From positions 63,790 to 127,789 of the IMG/VR virus record IMGVR_UViG_3300036784_000120: a DNA stretch of 64,000 bases. One strand, 5' to 3'. This DNA is from a virus (taxonomy: Duplodnaviria > Caudoviricetes). Below the pieces are notes generated by a model. The model did not search any database, had not been told where the DNA came from, and saw only the letters and a program-made list of their open reading frames with translations. Below, in pieces: positions 2,935-8,957 of the stretch; the stretch's first letter is position 1; each line of letters opens with the position of its first letter. A program made the position numbers and the translations under genes.

Positions 2935-5900
2935 CTAAAGTTTCGCGGCCTGCGCGGTGAGCGCGGCCGCCTGGGTCAGCAGGGCGGTGACCTGCTTGGT
3001 CAGCGCGGTGATCTGCGCCTTGATCTGCAGCTGCGACATGCTCTTTTGCAGCGCGGCGGTCTGCGCCGGGGTGACCGCGCTCGCGGCGGCCTTCACTCCG
3101 GCGGTGACCTGGGAGGCGACCGTGGACGCGGCGGTGGCGGTCTTGGCGGCGGTGGTGGTCTTGGCTGCCGTCGTCTTCGCCGCGGTCGTGGCGGTGGTGG
3201 CTTTCTTGGCGGCGGTCGTGGCCCCGGCCTGCTTGGTGGTGGTGCCCTTGAGCGCGGCTTTCAGCAACGCGAGCTGCTTCATCTTGGCCGCAGCCTGCGC
3301 CCGCAGCGCGGCGGCCTGCTTGTTGAGGGCCGCCTTCTGGCTGGCCTTTGAGTTAGCACCGCCGCCGGCCCCGCTAGCTCCACTGCCGCCGCTGCCGAAC
3401 TGGCCGCCGCCGAGCTGCCCGGCCGCGATCCGCGGGTCTTGCGCCGCCCCCGCCGCCGTGCCCGTCAGCTCAACCACCACCGAGGACAGGTCATCCCAGG
3501 TGCGGCCTCTCCTGGCAGTCGCCGGCCGGCTGGCCGTCAACTCAACCACCGATGCCACGTTGTCCCATGTCACGGTCATCATCTTCGCCGCCTGTGCCTG
3601 TGTCTGCCACGCTGATGCGAGCAGGTCGCTGATCTGGGTGTTGAGCAGCGCGACCCGCTGCCCGTCGCCGCCGGTTTTGCGCAGCGCGTCCCGCTGCCTG
3701 ATCAGTGCGGCGGCCTTCGCCTGCCCCTCCTGGGCGGTGACCATCGCCTCCGCCTCCGCCGTGGACACGCCGTTAGCCTGCGCGACGCGGGCGACCTTCT
3801 TCGCGCGGGCGGCCTGCGCCTTGGCCGGCACGGCGGCGGGCTTCGCCGGCGCGGCGGTCTGCGCGGCGGGCTTCACCGGCGCGGCAGCCGCAGCAGCCGG
3901 GTCCGGCGCGGCGGCCTTCACCGGCACGGCAGCCGGGGCCGGAGCGGCAGCCTGGCCGCCTTTGACAGCGCCCTTCGGCGGGTTGAGCACCGCCGCGAAC
4001 TCGAGCGCGGCGGTCTGCGAGCTGAACTGGCCGGGATCATCGAGGCGGTTGCCCGGACCCTTGGCTATGGCCCGCTGGTTGGCGGCCAGGGGGTTGGACG
4101 TAACCGCGCGGATAGCGTTAGCCATGCCAGCAGCCCGGCCACTTCGCTTTTGGAACCCGAAACTGGGATTCGGCCAGCCGGACTTGACCTCGAACTGTTC
4201 CTTCCGGCCGCCGGGGAACTCCATCAGGACGCGCTGCGGACCCTTGGGGCTGACCAGCTTGCCCTGCTTGTTCCTCACGGGCAGCATGTTGCGGCTGCCG
4301 CGCACGACTCCCCGCCCGTACTTCGGGTGGGTGTGTATGGTGCCCGGCTCCGTCTCGGTGATCCCGCCGACCAGGACCCACCCGTGGTGGTACGTGTACC
4401 CGGTCCCCGGAAGGTGGTGCCCCGCGATCGAGGCCAGCTCGATCACCCGGTCGAGGTCACGCCAGGTCCAGCTCAGTTCGTCCATGCCGCCGTTAGGCCC
4501 TCCGCCGTAGCCGCCGCTGTCGACCAGTTCCTGCTGGATCTTGCGACTGGAGAGTGTCGGCGGCCCGTACGAGCTGAGTGCCGCGTTGTCCTTGAACTCC
4601 TGGATCTTCGCTGCCGCCAGGTCAGACGCCTGCATCCACAGCTGATGCGACCGTTGCATGTCACCGGCTGCCGCCGCCGCGCGGGACTGCCTCACCAGCC
4701 GCACGACATCCGGGTGCTTGTTGGCCGCCGCCCTGGCCTTCTCGTCCAGCGAATTCGGGTCGGGGGCACTCGTGTCAGACCAGGCAGCCCCGCCGCCGGA
4801 CCACTCGCCGCGACGGTTACGCCGCTGCGCCGGGTTGAAATGGCTGAGGAAACCCAGTTCGATCGGGTCGAAGCGCCAGGCCAGTTCAACCACTGCCGCG
4901 ACATCATCCCAGGTCGCGGCGTGACCGTGGATGGCCCTGGCTGCCGCGCCTTTCGCTTTCTCCTCCGCCAGCGCTCCCGCCGCCGCAGCACGGACCTCCG
5001 GGTGGGCGTGACCGCCGCCCCGCGACCATTTCCGCAGCGCCCCGTACGCGATCGCCGACGCGCGGCCCTTGTCCATGCCCCGCTTCTCCATCAGGGCCTT
5101 GACGACCTGCTCGAAGTAGTCGGAATGCTTCATGCCCTTGACGCCGTACAGGCCGGGTCCGCCCGGCTTCCCGTACGGCGCCGGGGTGACCGCCAGCCGG
5201 CCTGTCTGGGCACTGAACTCGAACAGCGGTGCGCCGTTCCTGGTGGGACCGTATCCGTACTTTTTCGTGCTCTTGCGGATCGCCTTGGGCAGCGGCTGCC
5301 CTATGATGCGCGCCAGGCTGGCGATGTCCGCCTTGCCCACCTTGGACCGGCTGGAGTTGCGCTCGCGCTCGCGCATGGCCTTCACGCTGTGACTGGTCGC
5401 GCCCTTGGTCAGCCTCTTAACCAGCGCGTTCACCAGATCGTCACTGGACCACTCGCCGTGCTTGCCGCGCTTCTCGCCCGGGTCGTAGTGGTGCCCCAGC
5501 CCGATCACGCGGTCAAGGTCACCCCACCCGTATGCCGCGAACTGCTTAGAACCGTTCGGCTGCCCGCGCTGCGGGTCCGCCACGGCCGGGTCACTGCCGC
5601 CGCTGCTGGTCCGGTCCGGGGCGTTCAGGGCCCGGTCACCGCCCGGCTGCCTCGCGGTTGGCCTGGCGGCGAGCGCTCCCGGACCGTACCCGGCGTTCGG
5701 GTCGCGGCCCGGCGGGGCTGACGCGTCGTCACCGTAGGAGTCCCGCCGGAGCGCCGCCTGGTTCCGCTCCGCCACATCGGCGATGTCTTTGACGAGCAGC
5801 AGGTGCCGGTGGACGCCGTGCATCGTCAGGCGGGCGGCGGTGTGCGCGTCGTCGGTGTGCAGGCCGTGCCGCATCAGCGACTGCGGGGTCAGGGAGAACA

Positions 5901-6291
5901 TGGCGGCCCGCAGATGCCGCTGGGCGGCTTCCTCGTTCCCCGCGCGGAGCGTCCTGGCTGCGTCCCGGACATGCTGGTGGACGATCATGTCGGGATGGTC
6001 GGCGGCGATGTGGTCGGCGAGTTTGCTCATCGACTTCGCGGCCTGCACCCGCATCGGGGTCAGCGGCGTGTGCCTCGAGCGGCGGAACGCCGGCGGCGGG
6101 ACGGCGGCAGGAGGTACGGAATTGGCTCCCCGCGCGCCTACCGTTTTCGCCGGAGTTGAACCGGTCCCTGCTCTTACCTGCGGATTGACCGCCGTCCTCC
6201 GCCCGCCGCGGCTGCGTGAGACAGCGCCAGCCGGCTTACCCAGCGGACGGCCAGGGGGCGCCTTCTTGACTGCTGCCGGGGAAGCGGTCAT
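2935..6291 (-). CDS. Large repeat-punctuated head-region protein (1118 aa)
   Basis: Repeated WxDxxxV(I/V)EL(A/T) and HxxPxxxRxxxGEW motifs, Ala/Lys-rich linkers; lies downstream of MuF and portal. Confidence 0.8.
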   Translation of the reverse strand: MTASPAAVKKAPPGRPLGKPAGAVSRSRGGRRTAVNPQVRAGTGSTPAKTVGARGANSVPPAAVPPPAFRRSRHTPLTPMRVQAAKSMSKLADHIAADHPDMIVHQHVRDAARTLRAGNEEAAQRHLRAAMFSLTPQSLMRHGLHTDDAHTAARLTMHGVHRHLLLVKDIADVAERNQAALRRDSYGDDASAPPGRDPNAGYGPGALAARPTARQPGGDRALNAPDRTSSGGSDPAVADPQRGQPNGSKQFAAYGWGDLDRVIGLGHHYDPGEKRGKHGEWSSDDLVNALVKRLTKGATSHSVKAMRERERNSSRSKVGKADIASLARIIGQPLPKAIRKSTKKYGYGPTRNGAPLFEFSAQTGRLAVTPAPYGKPGGPGLYGVKGMKHSDYFEQVVKALMEKRGMDKGRASAIAYGALRKWSRGGGHAHPEVRAAAAGALAEEKAKGAAARAIHGHAATWDDVAAVVELAWRFDPIELGFLSHFNPAQRRNRRGEWSGGGAAWSDTSAPDPNSLDEKARAAANKHPDVVRLVRQSRAAAAAGDMQRSHQLWMQASDLAAAKIQEFKDNAALSSYGPPTLSSRKIQQELVDSGGYGGGPNGGMDELSWTWRDLDRVIELASIAGHHLPGTGYTYHHGWVLVGGITETEPGTIHTHPKYGRGVVRGSRNMLPVRNKQGKLVSPKGPQRVLMEFPGGRKEQFEVKSGWPNPSFGFQKRSGRAAGMANAIRAVTSNPLAANQRAIAKGPGNRLDDPGQFSSQTAALEFAAVLNPPKGAVKGGQAAAPAPAAVPVKAAAPDPAAAAAAPVKPAAQTAAPAKPAAVPAKAQAARAKKVARVAQANGVSTAEAEAMVTAQEGQAKAAALIRQRDALRKTGGDGQRVALLNTQISDLLASAWQTQAQAAKMMTVTWDNVASVVELTASRPATARRGRTWDDLSSVVVELTGTAAGAAQDPRIAAGQLGGGQFGSGGSGASGAGGGANSKASQKAALNKQAAALRAQAAAKMKQLALLKAALKGTTTKQAGATTAAKKATTATTAAKTTAAKTTTAAKTATAASTVASQVTAGVKAAASAVTPAQTAALQKSMSQLQIKAQITALTKQVTALLTQAAALTAQAAKL

Positions 6292-6839
6292 GTGATCCTC
6301 ACCTTCCCGCGCATGGCGAGCGTCACCAGCGCAGACTCCCAGCCCGTGTCACCCAGCGTCTCAACCCCGATCGGGCGGCCTTCGCCGTCCACGTCAACCA
6401 TCAAGTCATCACCGACGGGAATGGTGCGCGCTACCGGTGTCTTCTCCGGCAGCAGGTACACGTAGCCGAGCCGCAATCCGTTCCCGGTTTCCTCCCGTGC
6501 CTTAGCCAGCGCCGGCCGCAGGTCGAGGATGCCGACCACCCGGCCGTCCGGCAGCGGCACTTTCGCCAGCATCGGATGCCCGTGGTGGAGCCGGTTCGAT
6601 TCGGCCCACACGTCAGCTGCCTCATCGTCCCGGTAGATGGACGCATACACGTCGTCGGCGGTGACAGCCGGGTCGACGGGAACCTGCGTGGTCCTGGCCA
6701 GCGCCAGGGCGTCAGCACCAGCGATGTGCTCTGGCATGCCGTACTGCGCGGCCATCCCGGCACGCCGGGCGCTGCGCTCCACTACCCCGGCGGCCCGCGC
6801 CGGGTCGGCGTAGAACTCGTACGCCTCGTCATCGCTCAT
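6288..6839 (-). CDS. Protein with C-terminal DUF2283-like domain
   Basis: GYVYLLPEKTPVARTIPVGDDLMVDVDGEGRPIGVETL matches the DUF2283 pattern. Confidence 0.7.
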   Translation of the reverse strand: MSDDEAYEFYADPARAAGVVERSARRAGMAAQYGMPEHIAGADALALARTTQVPVDPAVTADDVYASIYRDDEAADVWAESNRLHHGHPMLAKVPLPDGRVVGILDLRPALAKAREETGNGLRLGYVYLLPEKTPVARTIPVGDDLMVDVDGEGRPIGVETLGDTGWESALVTLAMRGKVRIT

Positions 6840-7351
6840 GCGGCCACCGCCAGCGGCCCGCAGATCCCGCAGGCAGCGTCCGTGACGTTGCCGACGGACA
6901 GGTGCGGGCAGGAGAACGTCCGGCCGGCGCCGGACAGCGACGTGCCGAGCGTCTTCGGCTCGCCCATCCGGCCACTGCCCTTGATCAGTCCCGTGGGACG
7001 CGCGGCACCGAGACGCAAGTCAACCTGCCCGTACCTGACGAGGACGGGCAGCAGCGCCGCAGCGACCTGCTCGAGCGCGCCAGCCGGGATCCGCAGCGGC
7101 TCGTCGAAGCCTTCCACGGCCAGTTCGGTGGCGGCCGGCACGTCGAGCTCCCGGCGCACCAGCCGCCTGATCCACGATCCCACAGTGACCCCTTCCCCGG
7201 ACGCGCGTTCCTTCACTGCCTCGATGACCTCGGGCGCGAACCGGACCGCGGTCATGGCGGTGAGCCGCTGCCCCTGGCGTTTGCGGCCCGGCCCGGTGAT
7301 CTGCAGGTGCTCCGGGTTGGCGTAGAACTCGTACGCCTCGTCATCGTTCAT
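6836..7351 (-). CDS. Ribbon-helix-helix (CopG-like) DNA-binding protein with C-terminal zinc ribbon
   Basis: AMTAVRFAPEVIEAVKERASGEGVTVGSWIRRLVRREL; CPH...CGIC; start reassigned to ATG 7351. Confidence 0.7.
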   Translation of the reverse strand: MNDDEAYEFYANPEHLQITGPGRKRQGQRLTAMTAVRFAPEVIEAVKERASGEGVTVGSWIRRLVRRELDVPAATELAVEGFDEPLRIPAGALEQVAAALLPVLVRYGQVDLRLGAARPTGLIKGSGRMGEPKTLGTSLSGAGRTFSCPHLSVGNVTDAACGICGPLAVAA

Positions 7352-7476
7352 GAGGCGCACCATCCGCAGGTCGTGGTGTGGCGGCGGCCCAGCGGACGCC
7401 ACCGGCAGCCGCACCGGCAGTCATGCCGCCGCCAGACAGCGAGCCGGACCAGCCGCCGCTCAAACGTGACGCTCAT
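7348..7476 (-). CDS. Small Cys-rich protein (42 aa)
   Basis: MSVTFERRLVRLAVWRRHDCRCGCRWRPLGRRHTTTCGWCAS; ATGA overlaps at both ends. Confidence 0.55.
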   Translation of the reverse strand: MSVTFERRLVRLAVWRRHDCRCGCRWRPLGRRHTTTCGWCAS

Positions 7477-8957
7477 GCTGCCCTCGCATATCTCGCGCCG
7501 CGGCTCGGCAGCAGCGCCGCACCCGGCCAGGGCGGGCCCGGATAGCAGCGGCAGTTGTGAACTAGAATGCTATTGGCGGTGTACCAGCCGGTCGTGGTCT
7601 GGAGGTTGTAGACGTGCGTCGAGTCCCGGAACCTGCGGACCTGCCTAACCTGGTCGAACGCTACGACAGAGGCCAGAGCGTCAAGGCGCTCGCCGACGAT
7701 CTCGGCATGAGCCGGATGGCGCTGACCAGGTTCCTCCGCGAGAACGGCGTCCAACTCCGCGGCATCACCGACGCTAACCGCCTGCTGGCGGCTAACCGCA
7801 GCCCCGAGGAGCATGCGCGCAACGCCGAGGCGGCTCACGCCGCCGTGCGCGGAAGCCGTCAGACGATCGGGCACCGGACCAAGATCGCCCGCGCCAAGCA
7901 CGGCCAGGCGACCGGGAGCCCCACGGAAATGCTCTATGCCGAGTGGCTGGCCGACCTGCACCCGGTGCATCAGTTCGCGGTCGGCCCGTACAACTGCGAC
8001 CTGATGATCGAGCCCGTCGCCGTGGAAATCAACGGCGGCCACTGGCACGGTTCCGGTCGCCACGCGGCCAGGGCCCGCGCCCGCACCGAGTACATCCTCG
8101 ATCAGGGCTACAACATCGTGTTCGTATGGGTCACCGGCCGCACAGGCGGCGCCCGGATCGAGAGCGCGAACTACATACGATCTGTCGTCGAGTTCGCCAG
8201 CAGCCCGGTACCCCTGCGGGGTAAGTATTGGGTGGTTTGGGGTGACGGTGAGGTCGTACCCATCGGCGGTTACGATCTCGACGAACTCGCCGACGTACCG
8301 ACGCGCGGCCCCAAGCAGCACTGACGGCGACACCACCTTGGTGCCCGCCGGGAAGCAGTGCGGGTGGACAGCACCGGGGAACCCTATGTGCGGCATGGCC
8401 GTGGCGTAGAAGTTTTTCCGGTCCGCGGCCATGCACTCGGCGCTGGTCCGGTCGTCGAGCACCGTGTTCCAGCCGAGCAGCGGCCCGTGCTCCACCGCGG
8501 CCATATCCGTTTTCCCTGCCGCAGTGGCCCGGTTCCACATGGCTGCCTGATGCTGCGCATAGAAACGGCGTTCGGTGGCGAGCTGATCCCGGATCGCGGC
8601 GGTCACCGGGGTGCCTTTCGCCCGCGCGTCCCGCGCCGCCCCCATCACCCGGCGGGTCGCGGCGATCACGTACTGGGCGCGGCGGGCCGCGTTCATCCTT
8701 GAGGTTTGCTCCGATGCCGCCCCGATCACCCCGGTCACCGGCGGCGGGGTCTGCATCACGTCGGTGAGGACCCCGCCGAGCGCCTGCCACGTCGCGGCGG
8801 GCAGGGCGAACCGCCGTTTCAGCAGCGCGACCGCGGAGGCCGCGGATACGGCGGTGACGAGCACCGCGGCGACAGCGACGGCGAGGGCAGCGTCACCCAG
8901 GCCGTCATCACCCGCCGGCGGCGGCGGGGGCTGCTGCTGCGGTGCCGGGGTGGTCAT
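7473..8957 (-). CDS. MuF-like (SPP1 gp7-type) minor head protein containing an intein
   Basis: WNTVLDDRTSAEC...PGAVHPH|intein|CRCYP; the conserved HPxCRC motif is restored on splicing. Confidence 0.88.
   Translation of the reverse strand: MTTPAPQQQPPPPPAGDDGLGDAALAVAVAAVLVTAVSAASAVALLKRRFALPAATWQALGGVLTDVMQTPPPVTGVIGAASEQTSRMNAARRAQYVIAATRRVMGAARDARAKGTPVTAAIRDQLATERRFYAQHQAAMWNRATAAGKTDMAAVEHGPLLGWNTVLDDRTSAECMAADRKNFYATAMPHIGFPGAVHPHCFPAGTKVVSPSVLLGAARRYVGEFVEIVTADGYDLTVTPNHPILTPQGYRAAGELDDRSYVVRALDPGAACAAGDPYEHDVVALIEDVLGAGAGPGRVATGTVPVAAVDFHGDGLDHQVAVVRADRELMHRVQVGQPLGIEHFRGAPGRLAVLGAGDLGPVPDRLTASAHGGVSRLGVARMLLGAAVSRQQAVSVGDAAELDAVLAEEPGQRHPAHAEIVGERLDALASVVAFDQVRQVRRFRDSTHVYNLQTTTGWYTANSILVHNCRCYPGPPWPGAALLPSRGARYARAA
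7563..7605 (+). promoter_or_regulatory. Candidate -10 (TAGAAT 7563-7568) and RBS (GGAGG 7601-7605) for the antisense endonuclease
   Basis: Both lie inside intein blocks F/G; the RBS is 8 nt before GTG 7614; intein codons here (ATT CTA GTT) are unusually AT-rich; no clear -35. Confidence 0.55.
7614..8324 (+). CDS. HTH + DUF559/Vsr-like PD-(D/E)xK endonuclease encoded antisense inside the intein
   Basis: N-terminal HTH (YDRGQSVKALADDLGMSRMALTRFLRENGV); SPTEML...HQFAVGPYNCDLMIEPVAVEINGGHWH...ILDQGYNIVFVW; RBS present. Confidence 0.82.
   Translation: MRRVPEPADLPNLVERYDRGQSVKALADDLGMSRMALTRFLRENGVQLRGITDANRLLAANRSPEEHARNAEAAHAAVRGSRQTIGHRTKIARAKHGQATGSPTEMLYAEWLADLHPVHQFAVGPYNCDLMIEPVAVEINGGHWHGSGRHAARARARTEYILDQGYNIVFVWVTGRTGGARIESANYIRSVVEFASSPVPLRGKYWVVWGDGEVVPIGGYDLDELADVPTRGPKQH

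Follow-up and report, generated by a model that had tools for sequence, protein, structure and literature searches.

The stretch of DNA analysed here (hereafter the window; 64,000 nucleotides) comprises bases 63790–127789 of IMGVR_UViG_3300036784_000120, a 127,789-bp IMG/VR virus record that is rated 100% complete and derives from an uncultivated, 128-kb phage with a GC content of 70%. On the minus strand it bears a gene for a MuF-like minor capsid or head morphogenesis protein that is interrupted by an intein. The plus strand of the intein DNA contains an open reading frame (ORF) of its own, which specifies a helix-turn-helix (HTH) domain followed by a nuclease domain of the Vsr type (Table 1). 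Codon for codon, each frame is the reverse complement of the other, position 2 of each codon lying opposite position 2 of its partner. Comparisons with related phages, together with structure predictions, indicate that the plus-strand ORF is a real, selected nuclease gene, and that it lies opposite an intein whose centre is filler.

Table 1. Features of the MuF locus, in window coordinates.
Feature	Position	Strand	Basis
MuF-like minor capsid / head morphogenesis gene (494-amino-acid precursor including the intein)	7473–8957	minus	ORF list
N-extein, 200 amino acids, ending ...GFPGAVHPH	8358–8957	minus	aligns to its last residue with Crosby gp8
C-extein, CRCYPGPPWPGAALL... plus stop codon	7473–7553	minus	translation; matches Crosby gp8 CRCVPGPPHPGA
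Class-1 intein, 268 amino acids	7554–8357	minus	motifs; Pfam Intein_splicing (E = 1.7e-6); boundaries match Crosby gp8
Block G, N-S-I-L-V-H-N; the reverse complement holds a -10-like box	7554–7574	minus	sequence, codon usage
Block F, T-H-V-Y-N-L-Q; the reverse complement reads as a Shine-Dalgarno (SD) sequence plus GTG start	7599–7619	minus	sequence
Intein centre (intein residues ~73–217), predicted unstructured filler mirroring the endonuclease gene	7707–8141	minus	AlphaFold2
Homing-endonuclease gene, 236 amino acids, GTG start, TGA stop	7614–8324	plus	ORF list; wholly inside the intein
HTH DNA-binding domain (nuclease residues ~10–56)	7641–7781	plus	Pfam HTH_58, 29.3 bits (gathering threshold 23.8)
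Vsr-like (EDxHD-type) nuclease domain (residues ~100–220)	7911–8273	plus	VIA-align, family profile
Doubly constrained overlap: nuclease residues ~180–236 opposite the folded N-terminal HINT lobe	8150–8324	both	

Read on the minus strand, the ends of the intein are ...GAVHPH/CFPAGTKV... and ...SILVHN/CRCYPG (slashes mark the junctions). Its first residue, Cys1 (8355–8357), directly follows ...AVHPH and, like the TPNH of block B (intein residues 39–42), is invariant in a five-sequence intein alignment. Block G ends in a penultimate His and a terminal Asn followed by the +1 Cys (...ILVHN/CRC), and block F reads THVYNLQ. The Pfam family Intein_splicing gave a match of 28.4 bits (gathering threshold 35.8) that spans residues 218–468 of the precursor, across the filler. 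A protein without the insert is found in Streptomyces phage Crosby: gp8, annotated as a capsid morphogenesis protein, is ~41% identical to the N-extein in the aligned part (residues 86–200) and reads ...GYPGSVHLH/CRC on the N-side of the site. The intein boundaries are taken to be right because the predicted joined exteins (...GAVHPH/CRCYPGPPWPG) equal the uninterrupted Crosby gp8 sequence (...GSVHLH/CRCVPGPPHPG) over the junction.

Both lobes of the HINT domain (blocks A–B and F–G) are intact in sequence, and the ~145 residues between them are predicted to be unstructured filler. In the AlphaFold2 model of the intein frame, which was built on an alignment of only five sequences, the pLDDT values (predicted local distance difference test) are 23–45 at residues 73–217 and 63–86 in the flanking HINT parts. 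No LAGLIDADG or HNH domain was detected by Pfam in the intein frame at E ≤ 1. The minus-strand motif DFHGDG was considered as an in-frame active site and rejected, since it is the exact mirror of the nuclease strand P-V-A-V-E-I. A first-pass annotation of this DNA had placed a 268-amino-acid intein at the HPH/CRC site of MuF, with a centre devoid of a recognisable LAGLIDADG or HNH domain, and an HTH plus Vsr-type nuclease on the plus strand within it. The coordinates, the motifs and the read-through of Crosby gp8 agree with the first of these proposals; the Pfam result and the disordered centre of the model agree with the second, and the domain and structure matches described below with the third.

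Modelled on a family alignment, the plus-frame protein gave a mean pLDDT of 87.5. Its residues 1–50 matched the HTH domains of Hin recombinase, Mos1 and Fis (Z 5–6). When the model was compared with known structures using VIA-align, in which unrelated structures score Z ≤ 6, 111 residues could be aligned with Vsr (1cw0; Z 10.7, root-mean-square deviation 2.3), and Z values of 9.3 and 8.7 were obtained for the catalytic domain of I-Bth0305I (3r3p) and for the DUF559 protein NGO0050 (3hrl), respectively. The family profile also reached I-Bth0305I by sequence (E = 7.6e-6). A Foldseek search of the model against the PDB returned nothing at E ≤ 0.001, the best match being 3r3p at 2.2e-3, and a phmmer search of the PDB with the single nuclease sequence gave only noise. 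The match of the window nuclease to Pfam REase_MTES_1575 was weak (E = 4e-4); among 34 aligned family members, 27 matched this family and four matched DUF559.

The EDxHD active site of I-Bth0305I is formed by E170, D196, N208, H213 and D222 (Taylor et al. 2011, PMC3239194). In the family-profile alignment these residues correspond to E105, D129 (opposite the catalytic D196), N140, H144 and A154 of the window protein, respectively, the alignment being uncertain in the stretch that includes A154; E138 is an extra conserved acidic position. Within the family, N127 and D129 are invariant, E105 and E138 near-invariant and H144 conserved. With only one HTH, the window nuclease is a short form; longer relatives have two or three copies. 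Its two closest protein relatives show 69% and 61% identity, the closest IMG/VR loci (L020 and L021) 63–64%, and the family is present as a single copy in the whole 127,789-bp record.

The codon composition of the locus changes with the strand that is proposed to be coding. In the exteins the GC content is highest at codon position 3 of the minus frame (0.87), and within 7614–8150 at codon position 3 of the plus frame (0.84–0.90). In a comparison of nine diverse loci, the HTH and nuclease core showed higher conservation in the plus frame than in the minus frame in all 36 pairs. The last ~57 nuclease codons, opposite the N-terminal HINT lobe, showed the reverse, again in 36 of 36 pairs. As pairwise comparisons of such distant loci are near saturation, two groups of close relatives were used instead: seven enterobacterial phages (Snoke and six others; a gap-free alignment of 816 nt) and four Gordonia phages. 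Distinct codon differences were counted as synonymous or non-synonymous in each frame. In the nuclease core of the enterobacterial phages, the synonymous/non-synonymous counts were 54/22 in the plus frame and 13/63 in the intein frame; in blocks F/G they were 0/7 and 5/2, respectively. In the N-terminal HINT lobe of this group they were 8/21 (plus) and 13/16 (minus), a non-synonymous excess in both frames. In the Gordonia phages, the core gave 61/74 in the plus frame and 29/106 in the intein frame, and the N-terminal HINT lobe 9/26 and 26/9. By these substitution counts, the plus frame is under purifying selection in two independent groups of close relatives.

From the frame-specific conservation and the substitution counts, it follows that the element is partitioned into three zones: splicing blocks that are constrained in the intein frame, a centre constrained in the nuclease frame, and ~55 codons that are shared. 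In the shared zone the C-terminal ~55 residues of the nuclease overlap the folded HINT lobe rather than filler, so that one part of the DNA shared by nuclease and intein is constrained in both frames. It encodes a helix and a strand at the C-terminus of the nuclease (pLDDT 76–97 up to residue ~220), and within block B (TPNHPILT, 8220–8243) the residues TPNHPIL mirror the nuclease strand KYWVVWG. In Escherichia phage Snoke (L002), the TAA stop codon of the nuclease (3218–3220) is the reverse complement of the second intein codon, Leu TTA, so that its nuclease ORF stops 3 nt within the intein; this TTA is the only TTA, CTA or TCA codon of the intein frame in that phage.

The family to which the nuclease belongs is large. 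A sequence search found 40 homologues, and a profile search of 1.84 billion representative proteins found 1,937 clusters (50% identity) at E ≤ 1e-30. A tblastn search of cultured phages gave 93 records, including phages of Salmonella (52), Pseudomonas (14), Gordonia (12), Klebsiella (8), Escherichia (2) and Vibrio (1); in 13 of 13 records inspected, the match lay antisense within a MuF or head-morphogenesis gene. A scan of IMG/VR with the single protein found no relative, and an alignment-based scan found at least 510 loci, the best 80 of which (GC 0.38–0.73) were used for counts of architecture. Across the nuclease match, the codon-register antisense frame, that is, the intein frame, was free of stop codons in 80/80 of these loci, while the other two antisense frames contained 11.4 and 7.7 stops on average. 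The intein frame was likewise open, in the same register, in the nine loci of the first set (the window and eight others) and in nine further cultured-phage loci, which gives 98 of 98. The block F/G junction was detected in 74 of the 80 IMG/VR loci, the +1 Cys was present in 74/74 and C-R-C in 48. GC contents of 0.38–0.73 are found among the sampled members, which include E. coli, Salmonella, Pseudomonas and Klebsiella phages. At locus L100 (2001–2696, plus strand), a distantly related nuclease, which has an MTES_1575 match and lacks the C-terminal tail, has four stops in its codon-register antisense frame and looks free-standing between minus-strand genes, so free-standing cousins of the family appear to exist.

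The double coding also affects annotation. Gene calling in four metagenomic contigs yielded the nuclease, and the MuF frame was left uncalled or truncated. At the IMG/VR and metagenome loci L005, L007, L008 and others the nuclease was called and the MuF-intein gene dropped or truncated, while cultured-phage records show the reverse. Gene callers thus settle on MuF or on the nuclease, and annotations systematically lack one of the pair.

The DNA encoding the C-terminal splicing blocks carries, on its other strand, sequences resembling expression signals. The N-L-Q codons of block F, read in reverse complement, give GGAGG at 7601–7605, and the GTG start codon (7614–7616) lies opposite the block F His codon CAC. 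Further upstream, TAGAAT (7563–7568) is the reverse complement of the ATT-CTA (Ile-Leu) codons of block G, which are rare in this phage (5.8% of its Ile codons are ATT, and 1.5% of its Leu codons CTA). Counting offsets from the C-terminal end of the intein, a start codon is found exactly at +60 in 9/9 loci of the first set, mirroring the block F His codon (CAT giving ATG and, in the window, CAC giving GTG), and is preceded by GGAGG or CGAGG, which mirror Asn-Leu-Gln/Glu codons. Among the 74 IMG/VR loci, ATG, GTG or TTG lies opposite the block F residue in 51, and an SD-like sequence is present in 58. The other 23 have no start codon opposite block F, and initiation in these loci therefore probably occurs elsewhere, e.g. 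at an ATG opposite the penultimate His.

With respect to the -10-like box, which lies at offset +9 in the window, a TANNNT sequence beginning at offset +7 to +13 was found in 44 of 72 distinct cassettes, when 2.9 were expected from the same ORFs. The sequence TATAAT occurs exactly at +9 in 19 cassettes, and TGnTANNNT is present in 23. In loci with GC ≥ 0.58, A/T-ending codons are more frequent in block G than elsewhere in the same ORF (84 and 32% for Ile, 91 and 30% for Leu, 64 and 19% for Thr, 62 and 31% for Val, respectively), and Ile-Ile pairs in block G are coded by ATT-ATA, the reverse complement of TATAAT, in 18 of 26 cases. A second recurring TANNNT is found at offset +28, opposite S/T-L-Y residues between blocks F and G (23/72 cassettes, nine of them TATAAT), mostly in members of lower GC content. 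From these patterns we infer that a promoter and a translation start may be written in the reverse complement of blocks G and F, inside the mobile DNA. An early timing of nuclease expression would be pure inference.

These observations bear on the remaining proposals of the first-pass annotation. Its derivation of GGAGG from block F codons and of TAGAAT from rare codons of block G is confirmed at the level of the bases. HMMER searches of both strands gave Intein_splicing on the minus strand and HTH_58 with the weak REase_MTES_1575 match on the plus strand; DUF559, the family it had named, turned up in the four members mentioned above. The purifying selection on the antisense frame that it had considered in related inteins is seen in the enterobacterial and Gordonia groups, and the stop-ridden frame that it had envisaged in homologues is not, the intein frame being open across the nuclease in all 98 related loci. 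Its interpretation of the locus as a doubly coding element is thus largely supported.

As to the host gene, the 494-amino-acid precursor matches phrog_15127 ('head protein', E = 2e-24). Its MuF-like portions are residues 1–200 and 469–494. The Pfam Phage_Mu_F match is weak (15.2 bits; gathering threshold 29.6; residues 122–201) and stops exactly at residue 201, the insertion site. This family passes its cut-off in related host proteins (35.3 bits in L028, 48.9 in L035 and 35.7 in L099), in which the domain ends at the intein. In ten sampled host proteins, Phage_Mu_F and/or Intein_splicing matches were found, the MuF domain stopping where the intein begins. The insertion site is the conserved C-terminal edge of the MuF domain. 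At L050/L051 (1887–4673, minus strand; GC 0.40) a single open stretch of 929 amino acids contains Phage_portal (E = 1e-54), Phage_Mu_F and the intein, in that order; it seems to be a fusion of portal and MuF that harbours the same element. Directly downstream of MuF in the window (6288–7414, minus strand) lie two adjoining ORFs of 192 and 183 amino acids that share the N-terminal motif DDEAYEFYA-x-P and look like tandem paralogues.

The explanation that a mobile intein of MuF and an antisense Vsr-like nuclease with its own signals together form a homing element, the filler of which is removed by splicing, is considered highly probable on the basis of the sequence comparisons and models. By its sequence, a selfish two-part element occupies the MuF-like head-morphogenesis gene at the conserved H-x-x-C/R-C site. 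According to this explanation, the nuclease would be made from its own signals inside the mobile DNA, namely the -10-like box opposite block G and the SD sequence and start codon opposite block F, and would cut intein-free MuF alleles in co-infecting phages at the insertion site or close to it. Repair by recombination would then copy the intein and the nuclease gene jointly into the cut allele. The host gene would still work, because protein splicing would remove the filler from MuF. Several observations weigh against parts of this explanation. The openness of the antisense frame is not in itself remarkable in the window: with the codon usage of this phage, the chance that an antisense frame stays open over 236–268 codons is ~0.3. 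Of the antisense frames, only the one in codon register stays open easily, because no more than the avoidance of TTA, CTA and TCA codons is needed. For phage Snoke (GC 0.51), the corresponding chance is ~0.005. Since openness alone is unremarkable in the window, the case rests on the fold, the codon-position composition and the comparative data. In addition, the last acidic residue of the EDxHD site aligns with Ala in the window protein, the intein model was built from five sequences only, and 23 of 74 relatives lack a start codon opposite block F. The proposed promoter consists of a -10 box only, and a scan of 7300–8700 for two-hexamer sigma-70 promoters and terminators found neither. Finally, the window has GTG and TAGAAT where ATG and TATAAT are typical of the family.

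Three other readings have to be weighed. That the plus ORF is a shadow ORF of high-GC DNA, the intein centre being an unrecognised in-frame domain, would fit the ease with which the antisense frame opens in this phage and the empty single-sequence search of the PDB. This idea is, however, effectively refuted: the plus translation matches HTH domains and Vsr-type nucleases by Pfam, profile and structure; the GC content at third codon positions has its periodicity in the plus frame, while the centre of the minus frame is predicted to be disordered; substitutions that are synonymous in the plus frame change residues in the minus frame; and the nuclease ORF is retained in phages with GC contents of 0.38–0.51. 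A nuclease that is real and selected, but that no longer drives, or never drove, the homing of this intein, is improbable. It could be a domesticated or general nuclease (acting, for example, against competitor genomes), or the element could be fixed and vertically inherited, with a decaying nuclease. In keeping with this, an allele lacking the intein was not found close to this phage, the nearest unoccupied site belonging to phages ~41% identical in the extein; one position of the EDxHD site is unconserved; and several intein groups with VSR-like nucleases look vertically inherited (Gosselin, Arsenault and Gogarten, bioRxiv 10.1101/2025.01.02.630785). This reading does not sit well with an intact ORF, a conserved catalytic Asp, His and HTH, and purifying selection on the plus frame in two independent groups. 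Moreover, the same MuF site is occupied in phages of unrelated hosts with GC contents of 0.38–0.73, and so wide a spread at one site is hard to explain without horizontal movement.

The third reading concerns the A/T-rich codons of block G alone. These might be no promoter, either reflecting a foreign origin or slowing translation at the C-terminus of the intein in a way that aids folding and splicing, with the nuclease transcribed from elsewhere, e.g. from a promoter in the C-extein or by read-through. Clusters of rare codons near the ends of domains are a known aid to folding, and the failure of the two-hexamer scan is in line with this reading, as is the apparent beginning of translation at +3 in some relatives, ahead (upstream) of the putative transcription start. 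This reading is nevertheless rather doubtful, given that it is a specific hexamer at a fixed offset that recurs: TATAAT at +9, the excess of TANNNT over expectation, the extended TGnTANNNT form and the preference for ATT-ATA over other Ile-Ile codon pairs all point to a -10 element. The bias also persists in low-GC loci, in which A/T-ending codons are not rare.

Whether the splicing blocks double as the expression cassette of the antisense nuclease, and whether the family ranks among the most widespread and long-lived cases of antisense double coding, is judged from sequence to be an evenly balanced matter. On that view the choice of Ile/Val/Leu codons in block G would serve to spell a -10 box, often TGnTATAAT, and the His-Val-Tyr-Asn-Leu-Gln codons of block F would yield the start codon and SD sequence on the opposite strand. 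If both hold, a promoter, a ribosome-binding site, a nuclease gene and a splicing domain would all be contained in about 800 nt of mobile DNA, a compact natural example of antisense double coding in which two proteins and regulatory signals constrain the same bases. Synonymous recoding could then separate both functions experimentally. The design is stable and common, and E. coli, Salmonella and Gordonia phages that are easy to handle carry it. On the prevailing view, inteins became mobile when free-standing homing endonuclease genes invaded splicing domains, and elements in which the nuclease is still separate, on the other strand, are living intermediates of that invasion.

Actinophage inteins whose VSR-like endonucleases lie on the anti-sense strand have been described in the preprint of Gosselin et al. 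cited above. According to these authors, inteins of minor capsid genes carry only non-canonical endonucleases, and in the supplement the label 'minor capsid, MuF-like ... VSR -1 ORF' is given to Malisha gp5, Vivi2 gp14, Angelicage, Affeca and Fosterous. These Gordonia elements share with the window the host gene family, the site beside C-R-C and the antisense Vsr-like nuclease, and their published model has a Z value of 10.6 against Vsr 1CW0, compared with 10.7 for the window nuclease. The phages are also direct tblastn matches of the window nuclease (33–36% identity), the match lying antisense in the MuF gene of each of these five. Their survey covers actinophages only, whereas the window derives from an uncultivated 128-kb virus of 70% GC that lies outside PhagesDB and has a short, single-HTH nuclease. 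As regards the VSR-like group, nothing is said in the preprint text about a promoter, a ribosome-binding site, a start codon or selection specific to one frame. A paper on Jersey-like Salmonella phages notes an intein in the capsid morphogenesis gene, with no mention of an antisense nuclease.

Other systems resemble the window in part. Anti-sense LAGLIDADG genes in DnaX inteins (Gorbalenya 1998; Gogarten 2002) and VSR-like nucleases associated with split inteins (Dassa 2009) are cited in the Gosselin et al. preprint. The DnaX intein has been analysed with frame-specific selection (Phillips et al., bioRxiv 10.64898/2026.09.14.751524). Like the window, the Synechocystis/cyanobacterial DnaX element is a full intein with a homing endonuclease out of frame with the splicing domain, the endonuclease frame being selected and the intein frame relaxed in the overlap. 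It differs in having a LAGLIDADG nuclease, dnaX as host gene and a cellular host; its endonuclease is placed in the +2 frame of the same strand in the 2026 preprint, and is anti-sense as cited in the 2025 preprint. I-Bth0305I, like the window nuclease, combines an N-terminal DNA-binding region with a C-terminal Vsr-like catalytic domain, and its catalytic Asp, His and Glu align; its last EDxHD Asp is not evident in the window protein, and its gene is carried by a group I intron of recA. The members reported by Dassa et al. 2009 (PMC2677866) lie between the halves of split inteins or are free-standing, and neither these nor I-Bth0305I overlap a coding frame, unlike the window nuclease. The DNA-binding part of these enzymes is of the NUMOD type, that of the window nuclease being HTH_58. 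In canonical large inteins such as PI-SceI, the HINT domain is interrupted by endonuclease-coding DNA between blocks B and F, as in the window, and homing is presumed in both cases to target a conserved site in a gene that is essential or important. The difference is that the endonuclease of the window is a separate polypeptide, encoded on the other strand with start signals of its own, while the in-frame insert is filler. The architecture is therefore already on record, and the window adds to this known kind of element a new member that diverges somewhat from the published ones; the expression cassette in the splicing blocks, the partition of selection into three zones, and the scale and host breadth of the family may go beyond the literature consulted.

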